Source of the DNA: a virus
IMG/VR virus record: IMGVR_UViG_3300035338_000016
Coordinates: 14,784 to 78,783 of that record
Direction: 5' to 3' (one strand)
DNA length: 64,000 nucleotides
Made by a program: the position numbers and the translations under genes. Positions 4,248 through 15,664 of this stretch are shown piece by piece. The notes beneath the pieces are model-generated. The model was not told the origin of the DNA, made no database searches, and saw only the letters and a list, made by a program, of their open reading frames with translations. Numbering within the stretch: the stretch's first letter is position 1; every line of letters begins with the position of its first letter.

Positions 4248-4592
4248 TTATTTGTTATTCATAAATGGCTTCAATACTTCTTCAAAAAGTTCGTCGTCAA
4301 TGACAGGATGTTCCCATTCCCAACTCCAAGGATGAATTTTGGCTCTATTCCCTCTCACTGTTTCTTCTGGTTTACTAGGAGTAATAATTTTTATTGAACT
4401 TCCATTTTTAAAAACAATTTCTGCGTTTTCCATAGTCTTAATTTCATCTTGTAAAATTTTATGTTGGTCGTTCAGTGTTCTAAAGTCATCAAAATATTTT
4501 TCCATATCGTTTTCATCACATACTAAACATATTTGACTTTTTGAATATAAAATTGCTCTAAGGATACATTCTATTTCTTTTCTTAATTTCAC
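4248..4592 (-). CDS. Truncated large-terminase ATPase-subdomain-like protein
   Basis: CILRAILYSKSQICLV, IVFKNGSSIKIIT, VRGNRAKI and FEEVLKPF segments match the SPbeta YonF-type terminase ATPase region; Walker A and Walker B are absent. Confidence 0.6.
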   Translation of the reverse strand: MKLRKEIECILRAILYSKSQICLVCDENDMEKYFDDFRTLNDQHKILQDEIKTMENAEIVFKNGSSIKIITPSKPEETVRGNRAKIHPWSWEWEHPVIDDELFEEVLKPFMNNK

Positions 4593-4607
4593 TGATTACT
4601 CCTTCCC

Positions 4608-5160
4608 TTATAATTTAAATCCTACATCAGACACCTCAAATACTTGTGGCATGTCGAACACTTTGCCATCATATGTAGCCGTTTCATTTTCTGCAATTTG
4701 AGCAGAATAGGTTGGCTCTGCGTAGAAACATTGCAACTTATCTAATACTTTAAGTGCTTGATTCTGTGTTGCATATTCTCCCATTGGTTGCTCACACAGA
4801 CCTTTCAGATAAAATATAATTCTATATTTGTCTTCTACTCTGGTCATGTTCATAACTTCTACTGAATCTAAATTAATTAATACTGTTTGGTCTTGGCTTC
4901 TAATTAACATGTTTGTCCTTTCATTTTTGTCTTCTCACATCATGATATCCACCACAATGGTCACATGTATTATTCCACATTGAATTTTCCAACTCGCATC
5001 CTTTACATCCTTTAACTTTAACCGTGATATATTTTTCTTCATCTTCTTTTTGTTTAACTTCAAAACAATAATCATCTAAAATTGAAATTTCTTTTTCTTT
5101 TTTTCTGATCAATGCTTTTAACTGCTGACTAGATAAATTAACATATTCTTTTTTCTTCAA
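4608..5160 (-). other. Two small hypothetical CDS (4608-4910, 4921-5160)
   Basis: ORF track; SD sites present. Confidence 0.65.
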
Positions 5161-5213
5161 GTTATCATCCTTTCATATTTCTTCTCTCCTTTGAAAGATA
5201 AGTTTCATCTTAA

Positions 5214-6152
5214 TTATTCTCTTTCTAGTACCTCTTTGATCCCTTTAAAGAACCACTTTATTACTTCTATAGTCCAACCGTCGCCACACATATTGTAAAT
5301 ATGACCTTTTGCAACATTCATTTTGTACCAATTAGGAACGGTTTGTAATTTCCGATATTCATTTTCAGTTAATTTTCTACATATATTCTTTTTAATGTCG
5401 TACACTTTCTTTTGATGGTTGCCTCCCCGGCAAGATGTTAATGTAGCACATTTAAATTTAGGATTATTTACTCGTTTTAATATGTCATGACCATTAATAT
5501 GTAATGTGGCACAAACCTTTTTATCTAGTCCATGAAAGTCAAAATCTTGATTATAGTAATATGTATCATCAACATTTGTGTCTAAGATATCTTCCAGCAC
5601 TAAACTATTTTCTGTTGGAATAGTTTTGTAATCATATTCGATGTTTGTCCAATATAATCTTGATCTGTCACAAGCAGAAAATAAATTACTATCAATATGT
5701 ACCCATTCATCGCCAAGTCTATTACTAACTATTTCTCTATCTTCGGCATTCATACCATCTACGTTTTCACATAGATACAATACATTTGGATTATTATTTA
5801 CTTTTATCCAATCCAAAATATCTGCACAAGGATAAAATAACCATGATGCATTACCTTTTAAACCTTCGTCATAACCTTTTCTTCCTTTTACAGCTTTAGA
5901 GTTATTCCTACATGGAAATCCAAACAATACTAAATCAATTTTAGGCAAACCTTTTAACCACTCATCATTCTCATATAAATCTAATAAACTGCCACATTGA
6001 ATTGTATCTGGGAAGTTATCTTGTGTTACTTGGATTGCTTTATCATATATTTCACTTGCGTAATATTTTTCAATTGGAATATCTAATTCAGTCAAAGCAA
6101 TCTGACCACAACTCATACCATCACATAAGCTTAATATATTTAATTTTCTCAT
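5214..6152 (-). CDS. C5-cytosine DNA methyltransferase, canonical motif order
   Basis: Motif I LSLCDGMSCG, IV GFPC, VI ENV, VIII DRSRLYW, X GDGW. Confidence 0.95.
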   Translation of the reverse strand: MRKLNILSLCDGMSCGQIALTELDIPIEKYYASEIYDKAIQVTQDNFPDTIQCGSLLDLYENDEWLKGLPKIDLVLFGFPCRNNSKAVKGRKGYDEGLKGNASWLFYPCADILDWIKVNNNPNVLYLCENVDGMNAEDREIVSNRLGDEWVHIDSNLFSACDRSRLYWTNIEYDYKTIPTENSLVLEDILDTNVDDTYYYNQDFDFHGLDKKVCATLHINGHDILKRVNNPKFKCATLTSCRGGNHQKKVYDIKKNICRKLTENEYRKLQTVPNWYKMNVAKGHIYNMCGDGWTIEVIKWFFKGIKEVLERE

Positions 6153-6159
6153 TCATTTT

Positions 6160-6204
6160 TAGGAGTCACTTAAGTTTTATGTCCGGACAACTCGTTTCCT
6201 CCTA
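6160..6204 (-). promoter_or_regulatory. Twin-palindrome leader element upstream of MTase 1
   Basis: TAGGAG/CTCCTA inverted repeat enclosing the palindromes TGTCCGGACA and ACTTAAGT. Confidence 0.6.
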
Positions 6205-6234
6205 TATATTCTTTTATCGTTAAATAACTATAAA

Positions 6235-7188
6235 TTAATACTTCCAGTCTTCATTTCTTAAATCGAAAGCGTCTCCCATTTGCTGAATGTCTGGATAATT
6301 TTTGTTTGCTATTGCCTTTGCCCATTTATCAATTTCATAAGCTCTATATGTAATATTCGTATAACCTAATTGATCTAAAACATATCTGCCAGTACCAATT
6401 CCGTCATACAATGATAAGACTTCAATAGGATAATCTTTGGGAATATTAATATGGGATAAGATATGAATAATTACATTTGCAACCCAACCATTACCAGAGC
6501 ATTCGTATCTCCATTTATTAGGGACTTCAATTTCAGCACCATTATCATCAATACCATATTGGGTATACCCTACAGGCATTGTAAATAATCTTTCTACTTC
6601 TTCTGGCGTTAGCTGTCTTAAATAACCGTTTTGGTTCTCATAAACTTTTCTTGGATCAGTTTTCCACAATTCTTTTTGATATTCAGGTGTACAATTTTCA
6701 AATACGGCTTGTCCCATTGACTTACCAAAATATCTACGTCTTAAATAATCTTGACTTCCTTGGAAACCAGCATATCTTCTAGCTATGCATAATGATTTTT
6801 CTCTATCCACACATCCACTCTCTAAACAATCTTGTAATTTGATTTCTAATTCTTTTGGTTGTTGTACTCCTGGAATATTAAACCAATATACTCTTTTTCT
6901 GCTTTGACCGCTTACTAAAGCAGCATCAATCATCATGTATGGAACTCCTAGATGCTTACTTACTTCATCCTTAACAGATTGAGAAATTGAGTGGTTGTTT
7001 TCTACCATAAAATAATCTGGTTTGAATTTTTCTTTTGCAATAACACCGTTTAAAAATAATTCCCATCCCTCACCGCTATTTGGTTCTACTTCTCTATTCT
7101 CTGTCTTTTGACATACACTAAATTTAGTACAAGGGAAACCAAAAATTAATAGTCTTAAAGGTCTTCCATTTAATTCTTCTACATTCAT
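6235..7188 (-). CDS. Circularly permuted C5-cytosine DNA methyltransferase (motif order IV-VI-VIII-TRD-IX-X-I-II-III)
   Basis: GFPC near the N-terminus, then ENN, QSRKRVYW, RQLTPEEVERL, GNGW; LSLYDGIGTG, EID and GDAFD at the C-terminus. Confidence 0.9.
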   Translation of the reverse strand: MNVEELNGRPLRLLIFGFPCTKFSVCQKTENREVEPNSGEGWELFLNGVIAKEKFKPDYFMVENNHSISQSVKDEVSKHLGVPYMMIDAALVSGQSRKRVYWFNIPGVQQPKELEIKLQDCLESGCVDREKSLCIARRYAGFQGSQDYLRRRYFGKSMGQAVFENCTPEYQKELWKTDPRKVYENQNGYLRQLTPEEVERLFTMPVGYTQYGIDDNGAEIEVPNKWRYECSGNGWVANVIIHILSHINIPKDYPIEVLSLYDGIGTGRYVLDQLGYTNITYRAYEIDKWAKAIANKNYPDIQQMGDAFDLRNEDWKY

Positions 7189-7195
7189 TTTTCAT

Positions 7196-7243
7196 TAGGA
7201 GTAAACGCTGCGTTTATCGGTCGACCAAACCTCATTTCCTCCT
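7196..7243 (-). promoter_or_regulatory. Twin-palindrome leader element upstream of MTase 2
   Basis: AGGAG/CTCCT inverted repeat enclosing GGTCGACC and TAAACGCWGCGTTTA; same architecture as 6160-6204. Confidence 0.6.
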
Positions 7244-7338
7244 TTTAATTTTTTCTATATTTTGTGTTTTATTTTTGCTCAATTACTATATGTAGTAATA
7301 ATATCCAAATGAAATTTATGTTTCAAGTGCCTTGTGAT

Positions 7339-7863
7339 TTAACGAATTCTCAAACTCTCTCCCTGTGGTTCTAAATGAGCAAATTCACAATTCAAAGATC
7401 CATCTTTTCCTTCTAAACCATTCTCTTTAATGAATTCTCTAATTGCATCACCATTTACTGCGTCTGGTTGTTTAACTCTGTATTCTTGTGGTAACTTTTC
7501 AACATCTACATCCACAATCAACTTTCTCTTACCGCCGTTCTTCTGAATATTGAACGAAAATAAATCAGTTTTAAATTTGGTCTTTCCAGTAGCCATCATG
7601 CACATATGTAAATTCTGTTTTAACCATTTGATTCTATTTTCTAATGTTGTTTTTCTATTGTTTAATCTTGTAATTTCCGTTTCCAGACCTTTTACATCTG
7701 ACTCGAAACATTTGATAATTTTTGCATACCCATCTGCTTTCTCTTCAATTTCATATTCAATACATTCCAATGAATTAAGTATCGTTTCTTCATCGTAGCT
7801 ATCATCTTCTAACATTTCCATTAATTGAATAAAATTACCTGTAAGTTCATAAATGTTTGCCAT
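7339..7863 (-). CDS. Siphovirus Gp157 family protein
   Basis: MANIYELT start, IEEKADGYAKII and KTKFKTDLFSFNIQKN segments typical of the family. Confidence 0.9.
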   Translation of the reverse strand: MANIYELTGNFIQLMEMLEDDSYDEETILNSLECIEYEIEEKADGYAKIIKCFESDVKGLETEITRLNNRKTTLENRIKWLKQNLHMCMMATGKTKFKTDLFSFNIQKNGGKRKLIVDVDVEKLPQEYRVKQPDAVNGDAIREFIKENGLEGKDGSLNCEFAHLEPQGESLRIR

Positions 7864-7871
7864 ATATCCTC

Positions 7872-10235
7872 CTATGCTATGTCCTTTAATCTATTTTTGT
7901 TTTCAAGAAGAAATCCTCTCAAAAATGTTTGTTTGGTCTTTACTTCTTTTGTTTGAATTGCTTTTGTGATTGCATAACTATTTCCTACTAACACACAATA
8001 TCTTTTAGCTCTAGTGATAGCTGTATATAATAATTCAGAATTGTTCATGATGTAGCTGCTACTATCAATCCCTACAATAGTAGATGCAAATCCACTACCT
8101 TGCATCTTGTGAACTGTACAAGCATAAGCCAACTCTAATTTTTTAGATTCTTTCTTATTAAATACCACTTCTCCAATGCCAATAAAATCAATTGTGCAAT
8201 AACCATCATCTGAAATATCTTTTACGATTCCAATATTTCCATTGAATACAGGTGTAATTTCACCTTCCGTATTTGTACACTTATAATTATTTTTTGTATT
8301 TAAAACCTTATCTCCAACTCGTATAATGTATTTCTTTGTATCTTCATTTTTCTTTTCTAAAAATATTTCTAATTCATTGCCTTCTGTGAATTTTGGATTA
8401 TACAAAGCTTGAATTTTAGTATTTAGGTTATAACAAGATAATTCTCCACGAAGTCGCATTGGAACGCATACTTGCACTTCAATTATGTCATTGTATTTTT
8501 CAATTTCCCTTTGAAAATGAGTCATTATTGATTCTACTAGAGTCTCTTTATCGGTTTTATTATCTGAAATATCTAATTCCATATCTTCTAATTCACCTAA
8601 AATTTCATGTCCAGTAAAATTATTAGAAAATATTAATTCTTGGTTTGCAATTTTAATTGATGTAGGAATAATTCCACTTCTCAATGCCTGTCTATGTGGT
8701 TTGGTCAATCGTACAACTGGTAATACTTCACTATCCAAAATATCAGCAAAAACTTGACAATTTCCAATAGGTGTTAGCTGTTGAACATCTCCCATAATAA
8801 TTACCTTTGCTCCTGTTGGTATAGCTTCTAATAATGAAAGGAACAATGTACCATTTATCATAGTTGCTTCGTCAATCAGTACAATATCGACAGCTAATTT
8901 ATTATATTTATTAAAGTCAAAACTACCGTTCATATATTGCAAAGCTCTATGAATTGTACAAGCTGGCAACCCCGTAGCTTCTGTAATTCTTACACTGGCT
9001 TTACCCGATAACGCACATGCTAAAATACTATAATCTTCATACAATGAACAAATGCCATTTGCGGTCGTGGTTTTGCCACAACCGGCATCGCCCGTGATAG
9101 CAATAACATAATTATCAAGACTTAATTTAATAGCACCCCTTTGCTCATCTGTGAAAGGAAAACTTTGATTGTCCTCAACCTTTGTAACAATATCTTCCCA
9201 ATTGCAAATATTAAAAGACTTAGGAATATAATCTTGATGTAAATCATTTTCTAATGAATCATCATCTTCTTCATTACTTTCAATTATTTTGATGTTTCCT
9301 ATTTGTAATCGCATTAACTCTTTCATAATATTTTCTTCAAGTTCATAAAATTTTCGTAAAGCAATTTTATTACCATTATCAACTACCACAACATCTTTAT
9401 GATCTACCATTAATTTAGCCGTTGTATTTACTACTTCTTCTGGAACAAATCCAAGAGTGTCATATAGTGATTGCATTAATTCTTGATATGTAAGATAACT
9501 TTTACCTGCTTCACCTTGTTCATTTAAATGATGCAACAAGAATCCTTTAATTCTACGAATATCATATTGACCAATTCCAACCTTACAGGCTACCTCATCA
9601 GCTTTTTTAAAACCAACACCATCCACTCTTACTAAATCATATGGATTGTTTCTTACTACATCTATCACCGTATCAGGAGAATTATAAAACTCAACTAATT
9701 TTTTAATAAAAGTATGAGTCAATCCAAGTTGACCTAGTTCCATATAAATTGAACTATAATCCTTTGCTTCTTCATATTCATCAATCATTTTCAAAGCTAC
9801 TTGATTTCCTATTCCTTTTATCTCCATTAAAGACTTTACATCTCTATCTTCTAAGAGTTTCAAAACATCTTCGTATTTATCAAATAGCTTTTCTACCAGA
9901 TTTTCATTTAATATATTCTTCAGAAACTCTTTTTGTTTATCCTTACTTGAAATATCAATACACTTACTCATATATAAGATTTCATAAGTGTCACCATAAA
10001 TTTCATGAGTATCTACTACACGACCGTACATTTTGTAAGTTGTACCATAATCAAGTTTACAAACATTTCCTTTGTATTTTATTGTTTCAAGTTCTTCACA
10101 ATTTTCTATTGGTTTTACAATTCTTGCACTAAATATTGCAAACTCCCCTGATTCAACACTCTTGGAATATTTAGGAAATACAATTCTTTCTAAAACTACC
10201 TCTGCTTTTACAATCTTTTCTTCTTCCAATATCAC
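7872..10235 (-). CDS. recD2: RecD2-like SF1B DNA helicase
   Basis: NPYDLVRVDGVGFKKAD HhH region, Walker A GDAGCGKTT, DEATM, LAYACTVHKMQGS. Confidence 0.9.
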   Translation of the reverse strand: MILEEEKIVKAEVVLERIVFPKYSKSVESGEFAIFSARIVKPIENCEELETIKYKGNVCKLDYGTTYKMYGRVVDTHEIYGDTYEILYMSKCIDISSKDKQKEFLKNILNENLVEKLFDKYEDVLKLLEDRDVKSLMEIKGIGNQVALKMIDEYEEAKDYSSIYMELGQLGLTHTFIKKLVEFYNSPDTVIDVVRNNPYDLVRVDGVGFKKADEVACKVGIGQYDIRRIKGFLLHHLNEQGEAGKSYLTYQELMQSLYDTLGFVPEEVVNTTAKLMVDHKDVVVVDNGNKIALRKFYELEENIMKELMRLQIGNIKIIESNEEDDDSLENDLHQDYIPKSFNICNWEDIVTKVEDNQSFPFTDEQRGAIKLSLDNYVIAITGDAGCGKTTTANGICSLYEDYSILACALSGKASVRITEATGLPACTIHRALQYMNGSFDFNKYNKLAVDIVLIDEATMINGTLFLSLLEAIPTGAKVIIMGDVQQLTPIGNCQVFADILDSEVLPVVRLTKPHRQALRSGIIPTSIKIANQELIFSNNFTGHEILGELEDMELDISDNKTDKETLVESIMTHFQREIEKYNDIIEVQVCVPMRLRGELSCYNLNTKIQALYNPKFTEGNELEIFLEKKNEDTKKYIIRVGDKVLNTKNNYKCTNTEGEITPVFNGNIGIVKDISDDGYCTIDFIGIGEVVFNKKESKKLELAYACTVHKMQGSGFASTIVGIDSSSYIMNNSELLYTAITRAKRYCVLVGNSYAITKAIQTKEVKTKQTFLRGFLLENKNRLKDIA

Positions 10236-14584: not shown

Positions 14585-15664
14585 TCATCCATTTGTACCA
14601 ACGTATATTTTTTGTTCCATTAATTTAAGCAAAATATCTTTCCCCATATCGGTAGGAGATGCTTTGTATGGTAATAAATTTCCTGAATCCCATAGCACAG
14701 AAACTCTTACGAATGGACTTAATTTATCAATTATTTTTTCTTTTATGTGAGTTGCCCATTTTTTACATTCATCTGAATCTAAAGATTGATATTGTTTATC
14801 AAGAGCAACTATAACTTCCCTTACACCTAACATTAATATCATTCCTTTTTGAAAATCGGTTAAATTACTTCCACATAAAGCAACTGTAAAATTATCATCT
14901 CCAAACATAGTATCTGTTTGAAATACTGATTTTTCAGCTTCCACTAACATAATTTTCTTTTTTTCTTGAATTGCCGTTAAGTTATGATTTAAGCCAAATA
15001 AATTTTGTCCTAACGAATGATTGTAAAATTGTTTTCCTACTTTAAACGGTGTATATTTGCCAAAAAGTTCAATTTCTTCCTCTATCAAGGATCTTCCTCT
15101 TACTCCAATCAATTGATTATTTATGTCAAAGTGAGGAATTATTATTTTTTGTTGCCATGTGGAATATAAAATTTTGTACTTTTTCATTGTTTCAATTGAA
15201 ATACCTTCGTTAATCCAATCTTCCACATATAACTTTTGAAAAATTCTTAATATAGATTCATTGTATAAAATTAATGGTTTTGTTGTTTTTTCTTTTTTTG
15301 TGTTTCGTTTATACTTTCTAATAAAATCCCAATCTGATATTTGTTCCTGTTTACCAAATCCATATTCACAATTATCAATATTTAATTTTATACAAATCCA
15401 ATTAATAGCTTTTGGGAGTTCTGTAGGTTCATACCCTTTATATCCCATTACTACACCGATAACATCTAATTGTCCACATTCCGAATAGCAATGGAAAGAT
15501 TGAGAGTCTTTATAGTAATATAACTTGGGTTTTAATCCATGATGACATACTGTATCAGTTATCCATTGATCATCATCTTCATAATAGAAGGTTGCCCCCA
15601 TCTCTAATAACAATTTTCTTACGTCATCTTCAGAAAGCTTTTCTTTCAATTCTTGGGCGGTCAT
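14585..15664 (-). CDS. DNA primase (Zn-binding plus TOPRIM; YorJ-like)
   Basis: TVCHH...KLYYY...FHCYSECG zinc domain, IIIPHFD, LVEAEKS, IVALDK. Confidence 0.9.
   Translation of the reverse strand: MTAQELKEKLSEDDVRKLLLEMGATFYYEDDDQWITDTVCHHGLKPKLYYYKDSQSFHCYSECGQLDVIGVVMGYKGYEPTELPKAINWICIKLNIDNCEYGFGKQEQISDWDFIRKYKRNTKKEKTTKPLILYNESILRIFQKLYVEDWINEGISIETMKKYKILYSTWQQKIIIPHFDINNQLIGVRGRSLIEEEIELFGKYTPFKVGKQFYNHSLGQNLFGLNHNLTAIQEKKKIMLVEAEKSVFQTDTMFGDDNFTVALCGSNLTDFQKGMILMLGVREVIVALDKQYQSLDSDECKKWATHIKEKIIDKLSPFVRVSVLWDSGNLLPYKASPTDMGKDILLKLMEQKIYVGTNG

Follow-up and report, generated by a model that had tools for sequence, protein, structure and literature searches.

Predicted pairing of a distant Shine-Dalgarno sequence in a twin-palindrome leader shared by DNA-modification genes of Clostridia phages

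Leaders that mask the Shine-Dalgarno sequence (SD), and ribosome-binding sites split by a structure, are already known as kinds. Genes 38 and 25 of phage T4 possess such a split site, bridged by a structure that shortens the 22 nt of the first to 5 nt and the 27 nt of the second to 11 nt (PMC3014915). The element described here, a leader with two palindromes, stands upstream of each of two DNA methyltransferase genes in a stretch of 64,000 nucleotides (hereafter the window), positions 14,784 to 78,783 of the 127.5-kb IMG/VR provirus record IMGVR_UViG_3300035338_000016. It compares with the T4 sites in that it belongs to phage genes, has a distant SD (45–49 nt, against 22 and 27 nt in T4) and places a structure between SD and AUG; the effective distance would likewise be shortened, to about 13 nt by a geometry inferred from the sequence, if the helix that closes the element opens and the junction stays folded. 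On the other hand, the SDs of the T4 sites are single-stranded, whereas that of the leader is predicted to pair with an invariant CUCC lying at the normal SD position; and the T4 structures are gene-specific, whereas the leader is best read as a three-way junction with two palindromic arms, common to unrelated genes and phages.

The hairpins of T4 gene e and of I-TevI, and the SAM-III riboswitch or SMK box (SAM: S-adenosylmethionine), have in common with the leader a helix formed in cis between SD and anti-SD that limits initiation; the SMK box is moreover a small Y-shaped fold around this helix. In these systems, however, the SD is at its normal distance and the anti-SD elsewhere, positions which are swapped in the leader; they have no counterpart to the palindromic cores, and the leader has neither an Rfam match nor a link to SAM-synthesis genes. 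Palindromes preceding a methyltransferase gene whose expression is to be limited are also encountered at the CfrBI promoter site, the SsoII, EcoRII and MspI operators and the C-protein boxes, but those are double-stranded DNA sites at promoters, each serving a single enzyme, while the leader is constrained on the RNA strand, lies between SD and start, and has cores that do not track the enzyme. Finally, hairpins with self-complementary loops characterize the dimerization initiation site (DIS) of HIV-1 and the guanidine-II riboswitch (mini-ykkC), the latter with two hairpins just before the SD; their loops are conserved (GCGCGC or GUGCAC; ACGR), unlike the hypervariable cores of the leader, for which a dimer is proposed from sequence. 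What is new is thus the swap of SD and anti-SD, the three-way junction (as we read it) with hypervariable palindromic cores, and the sharing of this arrangement by DNA-modification genes of all classes.

A survey of IMG/VR phages reported unnamed candidate structures immediately upstream of DNA N6-adenine methyltransferase genes, and the leader may already stand there as an uncharacterised candidate; its main text does not describe a mechanism for a motif of this kind, nor a structure or a palindromic character (Fremin et al. 2023, PMC10690425). Our literature search found no description of the element, and blastn of the region against deposited phage genomes found no close relative. A first annotation of the window, made from its sequence (the initial annotation), could not assign the leader to a known family, D12-methyl RNA motifs included. 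The same conclusion came from Rfam 15: cmscan with E-values up to 10 returned no match overlapping the leaders, either in positions 4500-8500 of the window or in four canonical loci of other origin, one of them before a D12 methylase.

The record contains one canonical and one degenerate copy, called leader 2 and leader 1. Reading of the reverse strand confirms the twin-palindrome leader that had been noticed upstream of both methyltransferase genes, at the coordinates described. In what follows P0 is the closing helix, P1 and P2 the first and second palindromes, M1 and M2 the two methyltransferases:

7197..7243, minus strand: leader 2, canonical copy, upstream of M2 (sequence read and covariance-model match)
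7238..7243, minus strand: SD of leader 2, AGGAGG, 5' strand of P0, 49 nt before the ATG
7217..7228, minus strand: P1 of leader 2, perfect palindrome GGTCGACC (7226-7219), which on the mRNA strand gains a U.G and a U-A pair
7202..7216, minus strand: P2 of leader 2, odd palindrome of 15 nt with the core AAA-CGCAGCG-UUU
7197..7201, minus strand: anti-SD of leader 2, CUCCU, 3' strand of P0, followed by 8 nt and the ATG at 7188
6235..7188, minus strand: M2, a circularly permuted C5 DNA methyltransferase of 317 aa, motif IV N-terminal and motif I C-terminal
6161..6203, minus strand: leader 1, degenerate copy, upstream of M1 (sequence read and covariance-model match)
6198..6203, minus strand: SD of leader 1, AGGAGG, 45 nt before the ATG
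6180..6189, minus strand: P1 of leader 1, perfect palindrome of 10 nt with a TCCGGA core
6168..6175, minus strand: P2 of leader 1, perfect palindrome of 8 nt with a CTTAAG core, devoid of the usual AAA/UUU arms
6161..6165, minus strand: anti-SD of leader 1, CUCCU, followed by 8 nt and the ATG at 6152
5214..6152, minus strand: M1, a C5 DNA methyltransferase of 312 aa, full-length Pfam match
7298..7326, minus strand: TTGAAA-17-TATTAT, a possible promoter of the sigma-70 type some 55 nt before leader 2, by consensus match only (10/12)

The initial annotation had placed the only SD at 45-50 nt from the ATG and remarked that it is complementary to the CTCCT just before the start. Both points hold: no SD-like word occurs between CTCCT and the start in either window leader, and AGGAG pairs with CUCCU in the folds of both (minimum free energies, MFE, of -10.7 and -14.1 kcal/mol, z about -2). 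In the 64 kb the pattern AGGAG..CTCCT..ATG is found at the two leaders only, with 4 overlapping matches for 0.19 expected, a count that 0 of 100 shuffles reach. The extension by a G-U pair, which had been ascribed to the second palindrome, is actually on the first palindrome of leader 2. In this leader the 3' U's of P2 overlap inner pairs of P0, and P2 is also the P2 of the commonest phage variant among the matches listed; leader 1 has a linker shortened relative to the canonical element, and its P1 recurs in several unrelated phage leaders. We also observe that both leaders end in an identical AAAAATGAATG (6150-6156 and 7182-7188, minus strand), of which the second ATG starts M1 and the first starts M2; the alternative ATG opens an 11-codon open reading frame (ORF) in leader 1 and meets an immediate stop in leader 2.

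To what extent the element is shared was examined in three ways. The loci of M1 and M2 homologues were collected and searched for the leader layout with a regular expression; IMG/VR was scanned twice by pattern, which retrieved at least 115 and at least 112 stretches, the second scan having no GGAG requirement; and a covariance model, R1, was trained on 27 leaders, all from other phages and none from the window, and run unfiltered on the whole window. The pattern scans demanded GAGGTTTG and TTTACTCC, and the leader counts given below are those among the matches listed. R1 detects only the two leader sites in the window, 7197-7243 with 36.5 bits (E 7e-9) and 6161-6203 with 18.5 bits (E 0.003), the third-best match having an E-value of 0.43; it is from these scores that leader 2 is called canonical and leader 1 a degenerate copy. 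At E < 1e-3 R1 matches 86 sites (81 distinct) in 74 sources. Altogether the element is present on more than 200 IMG/VR phage contigs and also in Lachnospiraceae-type genomes, the named hosts being Robinsoniella, Lachnoclostridium, Clostridium sp. and metagenome-assembled genomes of Lachnospiraceae, i.e. Lachnospiraceae and related Clostridia; Robinsoniella peoriensis CCUG 48729 and Clostridium sp. HBUAS56010 are examples of carriers in culture.

The consensus, about 45 bases long, consists of GGAG followed by UAA or GAAA, a GAGGUUUG linker, P1, an A-rich joint of 1-3 nt, P2 in the form AAA-core-UUU, ACUCC, about 9 nt and a start codon AUG, UUG or GUG; the conserved 3' word that follows P2, UUUACUCC, is almost invariant. 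Among the matches listed, two palindromes accompany the scaffold in 111 of 113 cases when GGAG or GGGG is present upstream, versus 4 of 27 when it is absent, these few being chance matches; every genuine instance listed thus carries an upstream GGAG or GGGG. A leader of distinct sequence has the same layout: L026 (1452-1494) presents a GC-rich variant made of GGAGC, two perfect palindromes of 10 nt, GCUCC, about 10 nt and ATG. It has no GAGGUUUG/UUUACUCC scaffold and R1 misses it, so that the architecture may exceed the sequence family.

The distribution among homologues of the two enzymes is irregular. A homologue of M2 at 69% identity (L002) has the same leader architecture, with both palindromes altered yet still palindromic; a homologue of M1 (L001) is devoid of the element, with an ordinary SD located 8 nt upstream of the ATG; and the regular expression finds the same layout before several other genes in the unbiased homologue loci. 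In 100 unbiased loci of M2 relatives, full-length R1 matches were obtained at three sites only (L006, L082 and L059), two extra matches at L079 corresponding to a 21-nt hairpin. Most homologues of M2 being without the element, we conclude that it travels with certain phage lineages and not with the enzyme family.

The leader had been proposed in the initial annotation to be a conserved cis-regulator, to be checked by collecting homologous leaders and looking for covariation, and this check upholds a conserved element acting on the mRNA strand. In the alignment of the 86 R1 matches (81 distinct), 94.7% of the cells of P0, P1 and P2 are paired, versus 77.3% after shuffling of the columns; in ten pairs both partners change, with 243 compensatory cells, and 0 of 500 shuffles reach any of these measures. 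When the partner columns are slid, pairing falls to about 50%. This 81-copy alignment is fitted to the model structure, which biases it in favour of pairing; the variable cores, for their part, are absent from every retrieval pattern, and the columns of P1 covary. P0 varies by exchange of U-A for C-G and by G.U pairs (UGA opposite UUA, GGGG opposite CUCC) around a GGAG/CUCC core that is nearly invariant. With ViennaRNA, the probability of the GGAG:CUCC pairing exceeds 0.9 in 88% of 112 distinct leaders, and P0 belongs to every MFE structure computed, for the window leaders as well as for the further leaders folded. The best reading of these data is that the element folds as a small three-way junction, with P0 as closing helix and P1 and P2 as arms. 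Moreover, the alignment contains 89 G.U cells versus 4 A.C cells, which places the constraint on the sense strand, i.e. on the RNA or conceivably on the sense strand of single-stranded DNA.

The position of the element relative to the start codon is equally constrained. Of 106 distinct leaders, 70 have CUCC 9 nt before the start and 99 have it at 8-10 nt; start codons are ATG in 88, TTG in 13 and GTG in 5. If one removes in thought the stretch that follows GGAG, through CUCCU, what is left is GGAG, 8 nt and ATG, a textbook site; the element thus resembles a structured insert splitting a normal ribosome-binding site, with its 3' end folding onto the SD. Neighbouring genes in the same phages, and some other methyltransferases, have ordinary SDs. 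The distance from the upstream stop codon to the element is by contrast variable (from -2 to more than 45 nt) and not conserved.

We propose, with a probability of roughly 0.55, that the leader is a cis-acting mRNA element that gates the initiation of translation through SD:anti-SD pairing, with steps of invasion and bridging; judging from the sequences, it most likely throttles the translation of DNA-modification genes. P0 would pair the only SD of the gene (GGAG plus UAA or GAAA) with the near-invariant UUUACUCC, 9 nt before the start and at the normal SD position, and the fold would keep the access of ribosomes to these phage genes low or conditional. The U-run in the tail of 16S rRNA is complementary to the unpaired A's located 5' of GGAG, and it is from these A's that the tail would invade P0. 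The compact P1/P2 domain would then span the gap from SD to AUG, and the split ribosome-binding site so formed would have about 13 nt of effective spacing. The sequences show the conservation of the element, its pairing and strand, its spacing and its association with genes; the effect on translation, the invasion and the bridging are the parts of this scheme that we infer.

Several observations weigh against this scheme. The conservation of GAGGTTTG and TTTACTCC is partly due to the construction of the scans. The GGAG/CUCC core never covaries, so that the case for pairing at this place is drawn from its invariance, the folding energy and the pairs on either side. Thermodynamic z-scores lie between -0.7 and -3.2, which is modest, and P1 and P2 as hairpins of a monomer are marginal and often missing from the MFE structure. 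Repression and activation are not distinguishable by sequence analysis. A purely repressive hairpin needs neither two arms, nor palindromic cores, nor a strict spacing; an effective spacing of about 13 nt exceeds the Firmicute optimum, and the SD is unpaired in the split sites of T4 but paired in the leader. Gating of the SD also leaves three features without explanation: the exact coincidence of CUCC with the SD position, the presence of two arms and the palindromic nature of their cores. As an alternative, it is conceivable that the cis GGAG:CUCC helix mimics the SD helix and occupies its site on the ribosome.

Classed by Pfam, 85 non-redundant downstream proteins include 22 C5 methyltransferases, 12 N4/N6 methyltransferases (three fused to SNF2 helicases), 9 D12 methyltransferases, 8 double-zinc-ribbon proteins, 3 sigma factors and 3 proteins with a PAPS-reductase domain. 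PHROGs annotates two families, of 167 and 207 aa, as DNA methyltransferases, and a common family of 405 aa, with zero Pfam match, as PAPS-reductase-like. Taken together, the two classifications indicate an association with DNA-modification genes in general, which make up most of the genes behind the element. The survival of a phage under host restriction is decided by its methyltransferases; the element would be a portable control module shared by all three methyltransferase classes in abundant Clostridia phages of the human gut and the rumen. With an anti-SD in place of the SD and the real SD about 45 nt upstream, it also offers a natural test of how Firmicute ribosomes deal with a site that is both split and self-masked. 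In annotation, it marks true start codons without a local SD and flags DNA-modification islands in phage contigs. The double-zinc-ribbon protein, whose gene often bears the leader, was considered as a common trans factor and rejected, a homologue not being found in the provirus of the window.

The palindromic cores are a structural puzzle in their own right, open to simple in vitro assays. The 12-nt P1 has CG, GC, AT or TA as central dinucleotide, and is hence self-complementary, in 53 of 53 leaders. For P2 the adjacent central pair is GC in 21 leaders, CG in 20, AU in 18, UG in 16, UA in 3, GU in 1 and another combination in 2 (n=81), i.e. standard or U.G in 79 of 81. No less than 13 of the 16 possible self-complementary tetranucleotides are in use as centres. 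The central exceptions are U.G variants of the sense strand (CUGG, UCGG, GUGC), in at least 6 sequence backgrounds; the C.A counterpart was not seen among these leaders. Conserved bases flank the cores over about 3 bp only on each side, UUG/CAA and AAA/UUU. P1 and P2 of one leader always differ, and the leaders of one phage differ as well. A hairpin formed by a monomer cannot pair its four central bases; free loops would be expected to drift, and yet central self-complementarity is kept. The simplest structural reading of these centres, from their sequence, would be a symmetric RNA duplex, in which a leader pairs with another copy of itself.

From there one may go as far as an RNA homodimer, in which self-complementary cores pair a leader with a second copy as kissing loops or as a domain-swapped extended duplex; this would provide each gene with a private, concentration-dependent control of translation or decay, and could add to the fold that sequesters the SD. 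The complementarity running through centres that a monomer cannot use (P1 and P2 alike), the U.G-only exceptions, the short conserved arms that make weak and often unpredicted hairpins, and the divergence of the two palindromes and of the leaders within a phage are all consistent with it. Cellular concentrations of mRNA are low, however; a domain-swapped dimer leaves P0 intact, with no evident regulatory effect; many cores are AU-rich; and a C-to-T mutation bias could contribute to the restriction of exceptions to U.G. To our knowledge, no bacterial mRNA is under such a regulation. A kissing or dimeric RNA had been suggested from the start: it is compatible with the data inasmuch as the loops are self-complementary, but cofold energies bring no support, as they do not discriminate homodimer from monomer, any hairpin gaining energy as a duplex. 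We hold the homodimer to be rather unlikely; equally doubtful, from the sequences at hand, is its strongest form, in which each leader would recognise only its own copies and the domain-swapped mRNA dimer would act as a private dose-sensing switch of translation or decay. If true, such control would be without a described precedent among the mRNAs of bacteria or phages, and the diversity of the cores would be driven by the avoidance of cross-pairing between leaders together with that of host restriction sites.

Another explanation is that the junction governs the half-life of the cistron, either as an RNase III or RNase Y site or as a protective 5' structure with an SD-like stabiliser. Bacillus phages and T7 offer known examples of SD-like stabilisers at 5' ends and of RNase III sites located between genes, and the intercistronic position of the element, at a variable distance from the upstream stop, would suit such a role. 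It is also found sometimes directly behind promoter-like sequences; sigma-70-like promoter matches, of which the candidate before leader 2 is one, are not enriched over shuffles. Against processing or stabilisation, the helices are short for RNase III, and the strict spacing of 9 nt together with the lack of any other SD tie the element to initiation. We consider this role unlikely.

Still less probable is an element acting at the DNA level, in which the palindromes would be sites of the methyltransferases or of restriction enzymes, methylation or binding autoregulating the gene. The hypothesis comes naturally, since the element precedes methyltransferases and the cores look like the 6-bp palindromes of Type II systems, self-complementary up to the centre as a symmetric double-stranded site would be. 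The initial annotation saw typical methyltransferase or restriction targets in the palindromes, and the reading that these are the enzymes' own targets did not stand up to the comparison of loci. The pair TGCGCA + CTATAG stands before an enzyme of the C5 class in L260 and before one of the N4/N6 class in L261; TCCGGA + TCATGA is shared by an SNF2-methylase (L166), a C5 enzyme (L147) and a methylase of 167 aa (L188). One C5 family is found behind at least 5 different core pairs, and the cores before D12 enzymes are without GATC. Identical core pairs standing before unrelated classes, the palindromes are not the targets of the enzymes. PAPS-reductase-like, sigma-factor and zinc-ribbon genes are preceded by the element as well, and the sites are located downstream of the SD and ahead of the start codon, outside a promoter. 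The related proposal of methylation-sensitive DNA sites is contradicted by the exceptions that are tolerated: they are G.U pairs on the sense strand, and the excess of G.U over A.C cells is not expected of a symmetric double-stranded site. Core sharing and strand bias together reject both readings, targets and methylation sensors, in their simple form.

The frequencies of words in these genomes give a mixed picture. The four cores of the window leaders occur in the window at about the expected frequency, neither avoided nor enriched, a further point against a DNA-level role. GGCC and CGCG are absent from the window (0 versus 29.8 and 0 versus 12.5 expected) and from its leaders too. In the loci compared, no core among the matches listed is centred on GATC or CTAG and only one is centred on CGCG; all three are among the most depleted words of these phages, which may be counted in favour of restriction sites; GGCC is on the contrary often used as a core though it is depleted, with an observed/expected ratio of 0.36 in the loci that use it and 0.16 in the others. 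Restriction avoidance may shape the choice of cores; it does not explain it. As for the window itself, GATC occurs 73 times for 176 expected, which together with the absence of GGCC and CGCG amounts to a strong avoidance of restriction sites in this provirus of 31% GC.

That the distal SD serves a mini-ORF, starting at the UUG of GGUUUG or at the ATG of AAAUGAGG variants, with reinitiation at the methyltransferase, appears most improbable. A UUG does lie 8 nt after GGAG, and in leader 2 a 16-codon ORF from the ATG at 7235 ends in an ATGA overlap with the start of M2. But this ATG is only 2 nt from GGAGG; the frame is shifted by indels (L002); copies with UUUC for UUUG (L225, L138, L317) keep the pairing and lose the UUG; and the stops of the mini-ORFs are unconserved, 46 falling inside the main ORF, 32 near its start and 25 far upstream. 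These stop positions largely refute the mini-ORF, or translational coupling, as a general mechanism, the distance to the upstream stop being no better conserved.

A riboswitch that would open or close the SD-anti-SD helix upon sensing a ligand, e.g. SAM or S-adenosylhomocysteine (SAH), is just as improbable. The size of the element, its conserved junction with variable arms, a helix like that of SAM-III and the SAM-dependent enzymes downstream do recall such a switch, and a SAM-responsive one was among the suggestions of the outset; it is at odds with the want of any Rfam match and with the presence of the element before genes that do not use SAM (PAPS-reductase-like, sigma-factor, zinc-ribbon), while the junction is tiny and the palindromic cores would have no role. 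A junction of the hammerhead or another ribozyme was rejected, no match to the core being seen by eye and none being returned by Rfam.

Some observations on the genes and on other leaders can be added. The genes of the methyltransferase region are all on the minus strand, and the pair M2-M1 lies directly downstream of a Siphovirus Gp157-like gene and of a RecD2-like helicase (window 7339-10235, minus strand), placing it within the provirus's replication or early region. M2 has FGFPC as its N-terminal motif IV and YDGIGTG as its C-terminal motif I, and belongs to a large family of permuted C5 enzymes (3208 relatives by protein search), some of whose members are fused to about 100 extra residues. 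In L218 (4395-5960) a member of the 167-aa methyltransferase family is interrupted by an intein-like insert that brings it to 522 aa, with weak matches to Intein_splicing and LAGLIDADG.

Finally, a second type of conserved leader, absent from Rfam, contains ..AAAACCGAGGUUUCCUUUUGGU.. followed by about 10 nt and ATG. It precedes other genes, some resembling methyltransferases, in the same phages, at L252 (9108-9144) and L259 (9278-9314) and also at L180, L181, L185, L186, L193, L205, L211 and L235; in this type GAGG can pair with CCUU.

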